From Escherichia phage PHB12, in the sequence record MK524178.1: a stretch of DNA of 64,000 nt, one strand, 5' to 3'. Of the stretch, positions 30,804-37,118 are shown piece after piece (position 1 is the first letter of the stretch; the number at the start of each line of letters is the position of its first letter). Position numbers and translations under genes: made by a program. The notes beneath the pieces are model-generated. The model saw only the letters and a list, made by a program, of their open reading frames with translations, was not told the DNA's origin and searched no databases.

Positions 30804-31262
30804 TTATAAGAGGGTAGTGAGCACCTTATATAATGATTTGCCCATTACATATTCCCATTGAGAAGGTTTAATTAAAGCGAATGCATCAAATTCAGGAATC
30901 TGTCGTCCATCCGGGAACGTATGATAGGAATTACAAACACTGTTTCTGAATTGCTCGTGCTCTACAGGGATGGTATATAAGAACAGATGAATATTCTTAT
31001 TGTCTGAGTAATGATGTTCACCTAGGTCTTTCAGGAAGGCAGGGTCATATTGTGTAAACCCAGTTTCTTCTTCGCATTCACGAATAGCGGCTTCGATAGG
31101 AGATTCACCGGGCTCGACACGACCTTTAGGAATATCCCACCGATGAGCTAATGCACCTTTAGGACGAGAACCAGTTACACGGCCCATGAATAACTCTTTA
31201 TCTTCGGTAAGGAAAATAATACCGGCTGATAGTTCTTTCACTTTATTTTTCTTACTCATCAT
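30804..31262 (-). CDS. nudE: Nudix hydrolase NudE
   Basis: 152 aa; Nudix box GRVEPGESPIEAAIRECEEETG; adjacent to e as in T4 (e.1). Confidence 0.8.
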   Translation of the reverse strand: MMSKKNKVKELSAGIIFLTEDKELFMGRVTGSRPKGALAHRWDIPKGRVEPGESPIEAAIRECEEETGFTQYDPAFLKDLGEHHYSDNKNIHLFLYTIPVEHEQFRNSVCNSYHTFPDGRQIPEFDAFALIKPSQWEYVMGKSLYKVLTTLL

Positions 31263-31503
31263 CTCGGTCCCATGATTTGGCCATTAATTCGGACATAAAT
31301 TCTTCAATGCGCGTTTCTTTAGATGGACTTTCACTATTAGAGACCGCAAGTTTGTAATCTGCAATAGGACAGAACATATCAAGGTCCATATTAAGGTCGT
31401 CTTTGATTTTTTCTTCTGACACATCTTTATCGTATGTGTACAGATAACTATCACATGATTCTGATTTAATGTAAATTGCTATACTCATCTCAAATTCCTG
31501 CAT
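31252..31503 (-). CDS. hypothetical protein
   Basis: 83 aa acidic ORF. Confidence 0.4.
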   Translation of the reverse strand: MQEFEMSIAIYIKSESCDSYLYTYDKDVSEEKIKDDLNMDLDMFCPIADYKLAVSNSESPSKETRIEEFMSELMAKSWDRDDE

Positions 31504-31964
31504 TCGGTAATAAAACGTTCAACTTCATTATTCTTGGCTTTTATCTTGTCTTTATGTTCTTGTAAACTACTTTTAATAAGATTAATAATGATGGCGGCGG
31601 TACCGCCGCCAATGATGCCACCAACAACGCTTATGATACTAGATGCTAATAAGATAGCAATAATATCAACAAAACCGAAAGAACTCACCTTAGTACTGAA
31701 AAACCATATAGATGGTACAAATATAATCCATCCTGTTATCCATTGGCACTTATTGAAAAACTTTTCAAGCTCAGCTTGAGTTGTTCGTATTACTTCATCG
31801 ATAGGTTGATATCCATTAATGTATCTGTTCACGATAATACCTGCTGGCTGGTCGATTTTAAATTCTTGGCAAATATGTTTCACTAAGTAGGATGGACATC
31901 CTGTCCAATCTACTGAATAGTATGAAATACCTTCATTGCCATCGTCTATATTATTGTTAATCAT
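31485..31964 (-). CDS. membrane protein
   Basis: 159 aa; two hydrophobic segments including a glycine-zipper-like IISVVGGIIGGGTAAIIINLI. Confidence 0.4.
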   Translation of the reverse strand: MINNNIDDGNEGISYYSVDWTGCPSYLVKHICQEFKIDQPAGIIVNRYINGYQPIDEVIRTTQAELEKFFNKCQWITGWIIFVPSIWFFSTKVSSFGFVDIIAILLASSIISVVGGIIGGGTAAIIINLIKSSLQEHKDKIKAKNNEVERFITECRNLR

Positions 31965-32650
31965 TACCAGCCTTCCATAGGGAATTCCAGATAAACTTGA
32001 GCATTGACACGAATTTCATTGGTAATCTTTTTAACTCGGTCTGTATTACGAGATACACGTCCGAACCAACGCCATCCATTACTAATTGCACGAGAACCAG
32101 TGTGCCATGTTTGCCAATCAAACTGAAGAAGAGTACGATCTGGAGCTTCCCATTTCTCTAGTTCACCTTTTTCAATTTTTTCGAGGACTTCTTTGTGCCA
32201 CTGACGATAGATAAGTTCGCCATCAGGAATCTGACTGAACTCTGCAGTTCCTGTTGCAAAATGAGTAGGACACACGTCAGCGTTAACAAGACCAAGAATA
32301 TGTTCAGACAAATAGCGAGGATTGTCATAATCAGGTTGTCCTGCAGTAATAAAATGTTGTCCTGTTGGAATATCTGGGCGTGGTACGTCATCATGGTGAT
32401 ATCCAGGAATAGCAGGGTACCAACCAGGCATCAGCATGTGGACTCGTGAATCAAATACTACATCCGAGTCTTTCCAATCGTCAGGAAGATTTTGGATAAA
32501 GCTACGAGTAATTGGGCCGCCATTATCAAAAGCAAAATTCAAATCGCAGTTAAAGAACATAGGCTCGTTTTTAATCTGGTCGTTTTTAATCGCATGAGCA
32601 AAACCGCCTACTGCACGAGCTTGACTATTAAACACTTTAGAACTATTCAT
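31964..32650 (-). CDS. hypothetical protein
   Basis: 228 aa; His/Asp/Trp-rich, no motif recognised. Confidence 0.45.
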   Translation of the reverse strand: MNSSKVFNSQARAVGGFAHAIKNDQIKNEPMFFNCDLNFAFDNGGPITRSFIQNLPDDWKDSDVVFDSRVHMLMPGWYPAIPGYHHDDVPRPDIPTGQHFITAGQPDYDNPRYLSEHILGLVNADVCPTHFATGTAEFSQIPDGELIYRQWHKEVLEKIEKGELEKWEAPDRTLLQFDWQTWHTGSRAISNGWRWFGRVSRNTDRVKKITNEIRVNAQVYLEFPMEGW

Positions 32651-32651
32651 A

Positions 32652-32957
32652 TTATTTTCCTCGACATTCTTTAATGAAATTTTCTAGATTGGTAGATTCA
32701 ATAGCTTTTTTACGAGCTTCTGCGTGTTCTTCTTCGGACAATTTACATTTATAATTGACCCAGACATTATGGTCGAAACTAGTCGTAGCATATAATAACA
32801 ATGCTCCAACGAATAGCAAAAACGGCGATAAGAATACAAAACCAGGAACACCATCCATATCGTAAGCCTTTTGTAATACTGCAACAGAAAGGGCTGCGTA
32901 AAAAGGTGATGCAAATATTGTTAAAAGACCAATTCGGTTGGTTTCGCCTAATTTCAT
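32652..32957 (-). CDS. membrane protein
   Basis: 101 aa with two hydrophobic segments. Confidence 0.4.
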   Translation of the reverse strand: MKLGETNRIGLLTIFASPFYAALSVAVLQKAYDMDGVPGFVFLSPFLLFVGALLLYATTSFDHNVWVNYKCKLSEEEHAEARKKAIESTNLENFIKECRGK

Positions 32958-32974
32958 AATATTCTCCTCATGTT

Positions 32975-33016
32975 TTAATAGGACTACTATAACATAGTCC
33001 CTATAATTGTGTAAAC
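32975..33016 (-). promoter_or_regulatory. promoter-early stem-loop cassette (ATAGGACTACTATAACATAGTCCCTAT + GTTTAC)
   Basis: Inverted repeat around the -10 region; GTTTAC at rc of 33011-33016. Confidence 0.5.
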
Positions 33017-33028
33017 AGTTTTGTGAAG

Positions 33029-33985
33029 TTATTTGAAAGGTTTTACCATATGGAAATTTTGTTTGAAACGTTTGACGTAATCATCATGTCCTAAGCTTTG
33101 GTACATACTTACTACTTTGCTGTAGTTTTCCCAGGCGTATTCACGGAACCAACCGGAGGTGATGCTTGTACAGACTTTTTCCAATGCCATCATGAAACTG
33201 GCTTCAGGGTTAATTTTAAAGTCATTAGGAATCTGAGAACGTTCTAATGCTAGTACACATGATTCTTCGTATACACCGGCCAACTTGACCATTTCTGGTA
33301 ATGATTCGAACTTCTCGCGTGAGGTCATGACTTCAGAACCATCTTTCATATAAAATGTATACGCTGGACGGTCTGTTAGCGCAATGGCTTCATGAATAGT
33401 ATCATGGTCATATGTATAGATGCCATCTTTAAAGAACGCACTTTTAGAAGTGTCAAGAACTGGGTGAACATAGTTCAAGGTTTCTTTCTGGCGTTTCAGC
33501 ATAATTTCAGTAAGTTCATCGTTCAGTGTAACACCTTTACCACGAAGATACTGAATATGGTTCATAGTCTTTAAAAAGAACGGATTATTTTTCTTGAAAC
33601 GATGAGACATCTTAATTGCAAGACATATCTCAGGAGTCGCCCAGTAAAACCCGTTCAAACGGTCTTTAGTCAAATTTTTCTTGGCGTATTTTAAAAGGTC
33701 ATAAGAAGACGTGAAATCTTCAGGAGTGAGTTCACCGACTAATTCACGGGCATTAGTGATTGCCGGAACAATATATGCTTCAAAATGAGTTTCGCGTCCA
33801 TTATGGAAGCATTTGAAAACTTGGACATCAGGGTTATCTTGATGAACATATACACCCATCATTTGATTTTTGAACGCATTCCAAGAACATTGGTCTGCAA
33901 TAAAGTCCCAATCACTATTTTTGATAGCGCTAGAATCAATAAGACCGTGATAGTGAAGTGCACGAGAACCAATAACTAACATCAT
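33029..33985 (-). CDS. hypothetical protein
   Basis: 318 aa; N-terminal VIGSRALHYHGLIDSSAIKNSDWDF loosely resembles a nucleotidyltransferase motif but spacing is atypical. Confidence 0.45.
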   Translation of the reverse strand: MMLVIGSRALHYHGLIDSSAIKNSDWDFIADQCSWNAFKNQMMGVYVHQDNPDVQVFKCFHNGRETHFEAYIVPAITNARELVGELTPEDFTSSYDLLKYAKKNLTKDRLNGFYWATPEICLAIKMSHRFKKNNPFFLKTMNHIQYLRGKGVTLNDELTEIMLKRQKETLNYVHPVLDTSKSAFFKDGIYTYDHDTIHEAIALTDRPAYTFYMKDGSEVMTSREKFESLPEMVKLAGVYEESCVLALERSQIPNDFKINPEASFMMALEKVCTSITSGWFREYAWENYSKVVSMYQSLGHDDYVKRFKQNFHMVKPFK

Positions 33986-34013
33986 AATATTTTCCTCGGA
34001 TTAATTCATTAAC

Positions 34014-34253
34014 TTAAATTTCACGACATGCGATATCATATTCATCCCAGAGGTCATCGTGTGAAGCCTCTACTAATGGAACGATTGTACCATTTATGTC
34101 TTCATTATAAGGGCAAATTGTACAGTGCGCATCTTCGAATCGGATGCCTTTGTGTTCAGATTTTTTATAACGCATATCGAATATCTTTGCAAACTTTTCA
34201 CGAGTAATGGTTTTAGCAACCACTTTGGTTCCAATACTTTCATAATAAATCAT
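34014..34253 (-). CDS. hypothetical protein (possible Zn-binding, CxxC...H...C)
   Basis: 79 aa ORF. Confidence 0.4.
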   Translation of the reverse strand: MIYYESIGTKVVAKTITREKFAKIFDMRYKKSEHKGIRFEDAHCTICPYNEDINGTIVPLVEASHDDLWDEYDIACREI

Positions 34254-34271
34254 TGTGGACTCCGTTTAATT

Positions 34272-34310
34272 TGATAGGACTACTATAACATAGCCCTATC
34301 TTGTTGTAAA
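34272..34310 (-). promoter_or_regulatory. promoter-early stem-loop cassette
   Basis: TGATAGGACTACTATAACATAGCCCTATC with GTTTAC at rc of 34305-34310. Confidence 0.5.
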
Positions 34311-34315
34311 CTGTT

Positions 34316-34513
34316 TTAGCAAGAATAACTAGATGATACCCAGCCTTGAACAGTGATACTATTGTGGGATAATGAGATCGCGTCCTGGAGATTCAGACCT
34401 GCGTTATCTTCAATCCATAACGTAACTTCTTCGCTTTCTTCTGTTGCAATTTGGAACAGGTTTTCCAGAGCAGCTACTGCCGTACGTACAGCACAATCTA
34501 ATTCACGAGACAT
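34316..34513 (-). CDS. small protein, member 1 of tandem family ending GW(I/V)xSSxxC
   Basis: 65 aa; C-terminus ...VQGWVSSSYSC. Confidence 0.45.
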   Translation of the reverse strand: MSRELDCAVRTAVAALENLFQIATEESEEVTLWIEDNAGLNLQDAISLSHNSITVQGWVSSSYSC

Positions 34514-34522
34514 ATGGTTTCC

Positions 34523-34795
34523 TTAGCAAGTGTGAGAAGATGCGATCCAACCACCAGTTTCGAGGCTTAGGTTGTAGTCGTATTGGTAAACGTCGGCCCA
34601 TTCAGCATAGCCGTTTTTTGTACAACGTTCAAGGTCGGCTTTAAGCTGTCCGGGTGAATGATATGTTCCACCCATACCATAAGCTGGATACAAGTCGAAT
34701 GTTGTGTTTTGTTTATCAGCAATTTCTTTGGCAGCCTCAATAGCTGCATAGATTTTTGCTACAGCTTCAGCCAGTTCGGTTTGTTCTTTAGACAT
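34523..34795 (-). CDS. small protein, member 2 of tandem family ending GW(I/V)xSSxxC
   Basis: 90 aa; C-terminus ...ETGGWIASSHTC. Confidence 0.45.
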   Translation of the reverse strand: MSKEQTELAEAVAKIYAAIEAAKEIADKQNTTFDLYPAYGMGGTYHSPGQLKADLERCTKNGYAEWADVYQYDYNLSLETGGWIASSHTC

Positions 34796-34804
34796 AATGA
34801 TTCC

Positions 34805-35110
34805 TTAGCACAACGCAGAAGACGAAACCCAAGCACCTTCAGTAATAACGTAACCATTACCTTCACGCTTAACATCGCCACCATTATTTTCAATTTCATC
34901 TTTCATCCACTGGGATACGATTTCACCCTTAGGATAATAAGTACGACCGCTACCATAATCACCTACAGAAAATGATACGGCATATTGGTCTGCGATCTTT
35001 GTTGCTTCTTCTTCGATACGTTCAGCTTGGTTCAGAAGTTTATAAATTGCATCTGAAGCGGATTTGGCATCATTAAACTCTGGTACTTTAATTTCAATAA
35101 TCTTACTCAT
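34805..35110 (-). CDS. small protein, member 3 of tandem family ending GW(I/V)xSSxxC
   Basis: 101 aa; C-terminus ...TEGAWVSSSALC. Confidence 0.45.
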   Translation of the reverse strand: MSKIIEIKVPEFNDAKSASDAIYKLLNQAERIEEEATKIADQYAVSFSVGDYGSGRTYYPKGEIVSQWMKDEIENNGGDVKREGNGYVITEGAWVSSSALC

Positions 35111-35466
35111 TTTCTACATTCCTTAATAAAGTTTTCTATTGTTTCATTTTCACGTCTAGCTAGGAGTTCATTATAACTAATCATTTGAGAAGCGTAAACT
35201 TTTTTATTTTTCTTGTTATGGTTTATAAAATCGTAGTAAAAATAGACTACAGTACAAAAGGATGCGATGGATGCAAAGGCTTGGGTATACCGTAAGTCCT
35301 GCCATTGGTCTGTGAATCCACCAGAGTTCCCTATAAATCCTAACACAACGCCGTCAATAAGAAATCCAACTAATCCAAAGGCAAATCCCATGCCAATACT
35401 CATAATAAAAATTAGAATGTTCTCACCAAGAGAAGGCCATACGGTTAAGAGTTGAGGCTTTTGCAT
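35107..35466 (-). CDS. membrane protein
   Basis: 119 aa; three hydrophobic segments. Confidence 0.4.
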   Translation of the reverse strand: MQKPQLLTVWPSLGENILIFIMSIGMGFAFGLVGFLIDGVVLGFIGNSGGFTDQWQDLRYTQAFASIASFCTVVYFYYDFINHNKKNKKVYASQMISYNELLARRENETIENFIKECRK

Positions 35467-35870
35467 CTTATTTCCTTAACGAATTCCATAGCTTCTTCAT
35501 ATTCATACTTTTTAACAGCTTCATCATACTGAGCTTGGGCTTTTGCGCACTGAACTTTCCACTCACGAACTCGAGCTCTGTGATGACGGCCTTGGTGCCA
35601 ATATCCTACCCAGTTAATAGGCATTAATAAAAATGGTACAATAAGTGGTGCGACGAACATTAATGAAAATGCTGCATCAGACGATATAACTTCACTAGAA
35701 TCTAAAACAGCTCCTATAATCATAAAGATTAAAAATGCTAAAGCTAAAATAGGGCCAAATAGTACTTCGTTTGGGATTAATTTACGTTTGTATTCATACG
35801 CCCAAGGCTTAATTGGCATGTATAGGGTTGGCTTTGACATATTCTCTACATTCCATAATAAATTGCTCAA
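35445..35870 (-). CDS. membrane protein
   Basis: 141 aa; two hydrophobic segments; true start may be an internal Met because the N-terminus overlaps the upstream ORF. Confidence 0.4.
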   Translation of the reverse strand: MSNLLWNVENMSKPTLYMPIKPWAYEYKRKLIPNEVLFGPILALAFLIFMIIGAVLDSSEVISSDAAFSLMFVAPLIVPFLLMPINWVGYWHQGRHHRARVREWKVQCAKAQAQYDEAVKKYEYEEAMEFVKEIRCKSLNS

Positions 35871-37089: not shown

Positions 37090-37118
37090 ATTATACTCTG
37101 CTCTCAAGAGTTTGTAAA
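37090..37118 (-). promoter_or_regulatory. early promoter TTTACA-17-TATAAT with -10 inside hairpin loop (copy of the 6765-6800 cassette)
   Basis: Minus strand TTTACAAACTCTTGAGAGCAGAGTATAATGCTCTCATTGG; inverted repeat TGAGAGCA/TGCTCTCA. Confidence 0.6.

Follow-up and report, generated by a model that had tools for sequence, protein, structure and literature searches.

The nearest precedent, by analogy, for the locus analysed here is the MenA1-MenT1 pair, in which a helical antitoxin of 68 amino acids (aa), encoded upstream of menT1, blocks the electropositive active site of MenT1 (PMC10435456). Our locus lies in a 64,000-nucleotide stretch of Escherichia phage PHB12 (MK524178.1; hereafter the window), which represents an RB69-like Mosigvirus (T4-like, Straboviridae) and is 97% identical to RB69 across the region of interest. 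Here, an array of three small genes (34316-35110), whose products end in a W-x-S-S-x-x-Cys motif with the cysteine as the last residue, is located upstream of the gene for a predicted nucleotidyltransferase (33029-33985), both on the minus strand. We refer to this C-terminal end as the tail, to the small genes as tail genes and to the larger protein as the enzyme. The tail proteins have no sequence similarity to MenA1, which carries no conserved tail; and whereas MenA1 is encoded by a single-copy chromosomal gene of bacteria, the module described here is found only in phages, in arrays of one to five genes, with an invariant W-x-S-S-x-x-C-COOH end. The enzyme in turn differs from MenT1 in its helical domain (DUF7275), which is highly conserved and much larger, and it has no Pfam match to AbiEii/DUF1814.

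Other enzymes of the DNA polymerase beta (Pol-beta) fold are also paired with a small partner that bears a conserved hydroxyl acceptor, as in MntA-HepT (a type VII toxin-antitoxin system) and GlnD-PII, but the likeness is a functional analogy only. The acceptor in those systems is a Tyr in a folded loop, whereas the hypothetical acceptor here is the C-terminal Ser-Ser...Cys, and their partners are unrelated to the tail proteins in sequence and fold. RlaP (PF10127), a Pol-beta nucleotidyltransferase that is associated with RNA ligase in RNA repair, is phage-borne like our enzyme, some relatives of which adjoin RNA ligase genes (DSS3_VP1, Faust, RSP15), but as described it has no associated Cys-tailed small proteins (PMC12776372, PMC7824862). 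An identification of the enzyme as RlaP was rejected, as PF10127 matched none of 31 homologues of the enzyme even at E<=10 and no RNA ligase gene was identified beside the enzyme gene of the window. ThiS and MoaD (ending in -GG), LysW (-EDWGE) and TglA are small, often acidic proteins in which the invariant C-terminus is the site of the chemistry of a neighbouring enzyme. Their partner enzymes are E1-like, ATP-grasp or PEARL proteins, not Pol-beta nucleotidyltransferases, and to our knowledge none of these proteins ends in Ser-Ser-x-x-Cys, their folds and motifs being different from those of the tail proteins.

A strict gene-order rule ties the tail-gene arrays to one nucleotidyltransferase gene. 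This genomic tie, which is new here, is our main result: the loci point to a two-part phage module, with tail genes in variable copy number (1-5) upstream and a fixed nucleotidyltransferase gene downstream. In a set anchored on the small proteins, comprising 28 diverse loci and the window (29 in all), clustering of all open reading frames (ORFs) yielded one other family common to nearly all loci, a protein of 300-340 aa encoded in 27 of the 29. This is the enzyme, and in these 27 loci its gene lies 0-1.4 kb downstream of the tail genes on the same strand; one exception is a truncated locus, and tail genes with no enzyme gene nearby were seen in 1 of 28 complete loci. No other gene was co-conserved across the loci. 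The enzyme family is encoded in 733 GenBank phage records. In a GenBank sample, all seven phages with full-length homologues of at least 40% identity carry, on the same strand and no more than about 3 kb away, one to three tail ORFs (Aeromonas 44RR2.8t, Pseudomonas VCM, Klebsiella ZCKP1, Acinetobacter AC4, Stenotrophomonas Mendera, Myxococcus Mx1 and Ralstonia RSP15); these ORFs lie upstream of the enzyme gene in six and downstream in Mendera.

The reciprocal set, anchored on the enzyme and consisting of 80 IMG/VR loci with 5 kb on either side, gave the same picture. At least one strict tail ORF was present in 72 of the 80 loci, and at least two more loci carry variant tails. Eight loci have no strict tail ORF, while 20, 23, 9, 5 and 15 loci have one, two, three, four and five copies, respectively; copy number, whose variation the original prediction had proposed to look for, ranges from 0 to 5 tail genes per enzyme locus. 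As for polarity, 188 tail ORFs are found upstream on the strand of the enzyme gene, with none downstream and none on the opposite strand. This rule spans T4-like, jumbo, ~100-kb Pseudomonas, Ackermannviridae-like and Myxococcus phages. A search of 185,579 prokaryotic genomes produced five enzyme hits, all on contigs of metagenome-assembled genomes, four of which have tail ORFs upstream. Among the representatives listed (120 for the enzyme and 149 for the tail family), none fuses a tail protein to the enzyme.

The three tail genes of the window, which we call classes A, B and C, were detected in the original prediction as adjacent ORFs of 65, 90 and 101 aa, and inspection of the minus strand upheld this description, including the cysteine-last endings. 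Class A (34805-35110, minus strand; 101 aa, ...GDYGSGRTYYP...EGAWVSSSALC) starts within the stop codon of e.3 (ATGA overlap), with the codons for W-V-S-S-S-A-L-C at 34808-34831. It matches phrog_899 (E 1.3e-22) and has orthologues in Mosigvirus, Dhakavirus, Slopekvirus and other phages. Class B (34523-34795, minus strand; 90 aa, ...PAYGMGGTYH...GGWIASSHTC; W-I-A-S-S-H-T-C at 34526-34549) contains the family-wide YGMGG motif and also matches phrog_899 (E 1.9e-18). Class C (34316-34513, minus strand; 65 aa, MSRELDCAVRTA...QGWVSSSYSC; W-V-S-S-S-Y-S-C at 34319-34342) has no YGMGG hairpin and matches phrog_4882 (E 6.7e-36). In each class, Cys is the final codon before a TAA stop. The corresponding RB69 names are RB69ORF138c/139c (class A), ORF137c (class B) and ORF136c (class C).

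All three proteins are acidic, as had been claimed for their N-terminal regions; over their whole lengths the isoelectric points (pI) are 4.60, 4.66 and 4.05 for classes A, B and C. The tail motif ends 3 of the 573 stop-delimited segments of at least 40 aa in the window, exactly these three, and none in 200 shuffles. The proposed paralogy of the array was substantiated by a whole-length BLASTP alignment of class B with class A (E 4e-6) and by a full-length hhalign match of the class C profile with the family profile (probability 92.9%, E 3.8e-7), and hence the three classes are divergent yet true paralogues. All of them are kept in relatives, contrary to the possibility that only one would be conserved, and the motif is preserved in homologues well beyond enterobacterial phages, namely in Myxococcus, Pseudomonas, Aeromonas, Acinetobacter, Ralstonia and jumbo phages. 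In the RB69 reference a frameshift splits class A into ORF138c (33 aa) and ORF139c (71 aa; AY303349, 69734-70040), while most relatives, like the window, have the intact 101-aa gene. Other isolates have truncated or chimeric forms of classes A and B (P0012, 75 aa; P0033; P0034), and these broken copies suggest that individual copies are dispensable or error-prone.

An exhaustive search of 1.84 billion representatives with a hidden Markov model (HMM) showed that the tail family comprises 533 clusters at 50% identity; with a word-indexed search, relatives turned up in many Tevenvirinae as well as in Myxococcus phage Mx1. Among the best 149 of the 533 clusters, on which our statistics are based, the median length is 87 aa and the median net charge -7; Cys is exactly terminal in 137, the remaining 12 ending mostly in S-S-T-x-x-C plus one residue. 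Within the 137 Cys-ended proteins, Trp at -8 and Ser at -4 are each conserved in 136 and Ser at -5 in all, with S, A or P at -6. The arrays also contain the variant tails WxSSSC, WxGSSC, WYSSSMQNC, WVQSSC and WQSSNQSC, leading to the consensus W-x-[S/A/P/G]-S-[S/T]-x(0-3)-Cys-COOH, after which the stop codon comes at once or, in rare cases, one residue later; classes A, B and C fit this consensus. The tail is thus under extreme constraint across hundreds of lineages. A further class, absent from the window, has two motifs, an internal W-x-[S/N]-S-[S/A]-C-Y-G-E and a terminal W-x-[P/S]-S-S-C with no spacer (L038 3241-3459, L040 2913-3131 and L053 4105-4329); its internal copy implies that Cys need not be C-terminal in every unit.

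Beyond the tail, the family is one of small (~60-150 aa) acidic alpha/beta proteins with an amphipathic helix, a usual hairpin, a variable acidic insert, and a final beta-strand and turn. Classes A and B have both the N-terminal amphipathic helix and the F-x-F...Y-G-x-G-G/R-T-Y-Y-P hairpin that follows it, and class C keeps the helix and has no hairpin. Y-G-M-G-G is present in 122 of the 149 best representatives, and the segment from this hairpin to the tail is 8 to ~60 residues long, acidic, and often contains extra W-x-S-S pseudo-repeats. T4-like relatives have up to five tail classes (A-E), of which the window has the first three. On the strength of profile comparison, PHROG 899 and PHROG 4882, which include the three proteins by HMM score, are one W-x-S-S-x-x-Cys tail family; both are labelled 'unknown function' and are not linked to each other, and searchable sources record neither the tail motif nor the nucleotidyltransferase association for them. 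As in the original prediction, no known family could be assigned: the small proteins have no match above threshold in Pfam, NCBIfam or PADLOC, nor could they be placed in the COG5340 antitoxin families. Sub-threshold similarities to the MscS C-terminal domain, XkdF, DegT-type aminotransferases (E 4e-4; cut-off 650 bits) and PDC-S49 were dismissed as noise. We found no solved structural relative of the family, and no verified tail protein in the 185,579 prokaryotic species genomes; the tail family is restricted to phages.

Structure prediction, proposed earlier as a check for the three proteins alone and as oligomers, was performed with AlphaFold2 (AF2) for the 101-aa protein alone, using a 20-sequence alignment. 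The model (predicted local distance difference test, pLDDT, 89.6; predicted template modelling score, pTM, 0.75) shows a long helix (15-43), the YGSGRTYY hairpin, a short helix and a second hairpin. It does not bear out the picture of a floppy tail: A-W-V-S forms the last beta-strand (93-96) of a compact fold, which includes the Trp, and S-S-A-L the terminal turn (97-100).

The enzyme (33029-33985, minus strand; 318 aa) is RB69ORF134c, matching Pfam DUF7277 and DUF7275 and phrog_2141. Sequence methods reach nothing past these two domains, and neither single-sequence nor profile searches matched the Protein Data Bank (PDB). Judged by its AF2 model (pLDDT 91), the enzyme appears to be a Pol-beta-type nucleotidyltransferase with a MenT/AbiEii/ANT-like fold. 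The best-scoring solved structure is that of the MenT1 toxin (7.8, with 143 residues aligned), followed by ANT(2'') (6.9), TglT/MenT3 (6.8), LnuA (6.3), JHP933 and MenT4 (6.1 each), TM1012 (5.5) and poly(A)/CCA enzymes (about 5). The 31 homologues share ~60 invariant residues, including G6-S7, D25-x-D27 and E69, which would represent the hG[GS]/DxD/third-carboxylate set of Pol-beta nucleotidyltransferases, and the enzyme is accordingly predicted to be catalytically intact. Its C-terminal domain is highly conserved, with the motifs KMSHRYKKN, YDHDxIH, GVYEExCVLALERS and KVCTSITSGWFREYAWENY. For the DUF7275 domain, the H...HD...D metal-binding fold of HD-domain phosphohydrolases was also considered, with no clear assignment. 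AbiEii (PF08843) matched none of the 31 homologues even at E<=10; in a separate scan of distant homologues it was touched only by the protein of Streptomyces phage Faust, below the cut-off (E 0.051).

A comparison of the invariant cysteines of the enzyme with the presence of tail genes gave no more than suggestive results. In a clade of closely related full-length enzymes from IMG/VR (L090, L093 and L116), which have no tail genes upstream, W279 in the motif KVCTSITSG-W-FRE is replaced by Arg, and this is possibly a co-variation clue to a tail-binding site. C272 is kept in all tail-associated enzymes and also in some tail-less ones, and C243 is replaced by Tyr in several tail-associated enzymes. 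RNA ligase genes adjoin the tail-less distant enzyme genes of DSS3_VP1 and Streptomyces phage Faust, a tRNA gene cluster is found beside that of Gordonia phage ClubL, and Ralstonia phage RSP15, which does carry tail genes, also has an RNA ligase gene directly downstream (L044 1330-2310, L046 2357-3004, L049 4506-5528 and L047 5347-7484). NAMPT or Sir2 genes are located near the enzyme gene in several other phages. There are hints in these neighbourhoods of a role for the enzyme family at RNA ends or tRNA.

The genes of the array are spaced by 9 nt, with junctions of the form TGC-TAA-GGA-N6-ATG in which the Shine-Dalgarno sequence overlaps the stop codon. Both spacers, GGAATCATT between classes A and B (34796-34804, minus strand) and GGAAACCAT between classes B and C (34514-34522, minus strand), form TAAGGA together with the preceding TAA, pointing to translational coupling of the array genes. 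The 9-nt spacing and the ATGA overlap with e.3 make classes A, B and C the last three cistrons of the e.6-e.5-e.4-e.3 unit. An early-like promoter, TTTACA-17-TATAAT (37090-37118, minus strand; 11 of 12 matches), lies ahead of e.6 and is the probable start of an e.6-e.5-e.4-e.3-A-B-C transcription unit. Directly after the array, before a 79-aa ORF and the enzyme gene, is a sigma-70/T4-early-like promoter, TTTACA-17-TATAGT with TG (34282-34310, minus strand), a consensus match only. A late-promoter scan found no TATAAATA between 28509 and 41767, and none within 5 kb of the array. The array genes are thus probably expressed early and, given the early-type promoter and the lack of a late promoter nearby, nothing points to a role in the virion.

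The 79-aa ORF between the array and the enzyme gene (34014-34253, minus strand; RB69ORF135c, phrog_3723) encodes a basic protein with no tail motif; other T4-like phages (L053, L063) have homologues of it at this position, and none is found there outside T4-like phages. T4 itself has neither tail genes nor the enzyme gene at the orthologous site (NC_000866, 67652-68319), where e.2 and e.3 are direct neighbours. Relative to T4, 3.1 kb are inserted between these two genes in the RB69-type genome (window 31485-35466); the insertion holds the three tail genes, the nucleotidyltransferase gene and ORF132c, ORF133c and ORF135c, seven genes in all. A further family of small acidic proteins (77-90 aa), with ...ESxDxY... 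and an SW-acidic tail such as SWDRDDE or SWNREDNEDEDY, may be another member of the module. Its gene is immediately upstream of the tail array in jumbo-phage loci (L014 5711-5983, L019 5172-5432 and L036 5739-5972), and in the window it is at 31252-31503 (minus strand), ~1.5 kb past the nucleotidyltransferase gene. A 'sulfurtransferase' label in phage vB_Eco_F27 proved to sit on an e.4 homologue (L135 2446-2841), not on the tail genes; the e.4 homologue of the window (35445-35870, minus strand) is a predicted membrane protein, and no search backed this label. A 228-aa ORF at 31964-32650 was considered as kin of the 218-aa neighbour of the DSS3_VP1 enzyme and dropped (BLASTP E 0.07).

The original prediction had suggested the tail as a determinant of processing, modification or binding. 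We infer the same, and the idea is now better motivated by the strict linkage to the nucleotidyltransferase gene, a link which that prediction did not include. We think it rather probable that the tail proteins are direct functional partners of the enzyme. That they are partners in which the tail itself is the determinant directed at the enzyme is nearly an even call, leaning slightly to the negative, and that the tail is covalently modified appears unlikely. According to this model, for which we infer a physical interaction, the small acidic proteins would bind the enzyme, and their invariant C-terminal turn, with two Ser hydroxyls and the thiol and carboxylate of the terminal Cys, would be offered to the positively charged active-site cleft. 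The tail proteins would then act as regulators or pseudo-substrates, possibly being O-nucleotidylylated on Ser, which would be the simplest covalent option for this fold class. Some enzyme genes have no tail genes beside them, which makes a role as regulators, pseudo-substrates or adaptors more likely for the tail proteins than one as the sole substrate of the enzyme. With no more likelihood than we give to covalent modification, one may speculate on a phage protein-conjugation system, in which a MenT-like enzyme nucleotidylylates or otherwise derivatises acceptor proteins on their W-x-S-S-x-x-C-COOH end, the one to five acceptors providing several outputs in host takeover or counter-defence.

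Several observations weigh against a direct partnership of this kind. One to five divergent copies per phage are atypical for an antitoxin. The C-terminus of MenA1 is dispensable (PMC10435456), unlike the invariant tail here. The enzyme family extends beyond the tail family. Tail ORFs are found in none of the five sampled phages with distant, shorter homologues of the enzyme (DSS3_VP1, Vibrio K412, Streptomyces Faust, Gordonia ClubL and KVP40), and these forms, together with the tail-less L090/L093/L116 clade, indicate that the tail proteins are not needed for the core activity of the enzyme. The conservation of the Trp may simply reflect its position in the hydrophobic core of the predicted fold. 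Finally, a promoter-like site and, in T4-like phages, at least one unrelated ORF separate the array from the enzyme gene.

In the most serious alternative, the tail proteins would act independently of the enzyme as host-directed early proteins, such as acidic decoys for, or inhibitors of, a defence protein or conserved bacterial target. Their W-x-S-S-x-x-C end would then cap the structure or form a small site for a metal or ligand, and the synteny would reflect a shared pathway or co-inheritance on an accessory island, for instance among functions in RNA-end or tRNA conflict. Such independence would suit genes that are early, small, acidic and accessory, as takeover and anti-defence genes are, that vary from zero to five copies with broken copies in RB69 (ORF138c/139c) and P0012 (75 aa), and that are missing beside some enzyme clades; the AF2 model, with the Trp inside the fold, and the RNA ligase or tRNA genes beside the enzyme gene in DSS3_VP1, Faust, RSP15 and ClubL, which suggest a pathway-level context, agree with it as well. 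Yet a polarity of 188:0:0 across unrelated phage lineages is far tighter than residence on a common island would produce, no other gene is co-conserved, and tail loci lacking the enzyme gene are rare (1 of 28 complete loci). We therefore regard independent action as possible but somewhat doubtful.

A second alternative, which overlaps with the partnership that we prefer, is that the tail proteins are carriers or scaffolds, whose Ser-Ser hydroxyls or terminal Cys are loaded by the enzyme with a nucleotide-derived group, the conjugate being the active species. Precedents exist, since CitX and MdcG attach the prosthetic group of a small acidic acyl carrier protein to one of its Ser residues, and LysW, ThiS and TglA hold intermediates on a conserved C-terminus. 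The small size and acidity of the tail proteins, the invariant Ser-Ser and the terminal thiol would be appropriate for a carrier, and the fold class of the adjacent enzyme moves groups of the nucleoside monophosphate (NMP) type to hydroxyl acceptors (ANT(2''), LnuA, MenT). The spacing of 0-3 residues between Ser-Ser and Cys, and the two W-x-S-S-S-C units of some proteins, also suggest an accessible arm over a rigid site. What makes this alternative improbable is that no further biosynthetic genes are co-conserved, that several divergent carriers per phage have no obvious rationale, and that the enzyme is also present without tail genes.

A third possibility, that the tail proteins are precursors resembling those of ribosomally synthesised and post-translationally modified peptides (RiPPs), is highly improbable. 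Here a tail Ser would be converted to dehydroalanine and caught by the terminal Cys in a lanthionine or S-aminovinyl-cysteine (AviCys) ring, and a small peptide would be released. The classical lanthionine/AviCys arrangement has S-x-x-C or S-x-x-x-C at the C-terminus, and the invariant Ser-Ser with the terminal Cys fits this pattern. However, the Ser-to-Cys spacing varies from 0 to 3, the would-be leader is well folded in the AF2 model, and the setting is one of intracellular early genes in lytic phages of Gram-negative hosts; moreover, neither the neighbouring genes of the window nor the co-conserved families include a dehydratase or cyclase (LanB, LanC, LanM, LanKC or LanL), a LanD decarboxylase, a radical-SAM enzyme, a protease or an exporter. 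Chance or an annotation artefact, for which only the small size of the ORFs speaks, is excluded by the three observed endings against none in the shuffles, the PHROG matches (E 1e-18 to 1e-36), the hundreds of homologous clusters sharing the ending and the coupled Shine-Dalgarno/start architecture.

The searchable literature makes no mention of the tail motif, of DUF7275/DUF7277, of phrog_899 or of RB69ORF134c-139c, broader literature searches likewise gave nothing relevant, and databases contain the tail proteins only as 'hypothetical'. This uncharacterised module occurs widely among large lytic phages that infect Gram-negative bacteria: its T4-like carriers infect Escherichia, Klebsiella, Enterobacter, Citrobacter, Serratia, Yersinia, Aeromonas and Acinetobacter, and further carriers are Phapecoctavirus, Otagovirus, jumbo phages and Myxococcus Mx1. 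At a minimum, the analysis allows two Pfam domains of unknown function (DUFs) and two PHROGs to be annotated together as one module, whose conserved eight-residue C-terminal signature and gene order relative to a single enzyme provide a sharply testable hypothesis. If the tail is modified, this would represent a new protein-nucleotide or thiol chemistry; and if the enzyme acts on tRNA 3' ends as MenT does, the module would bear on the tRNA conflict between these phages and their hosts.

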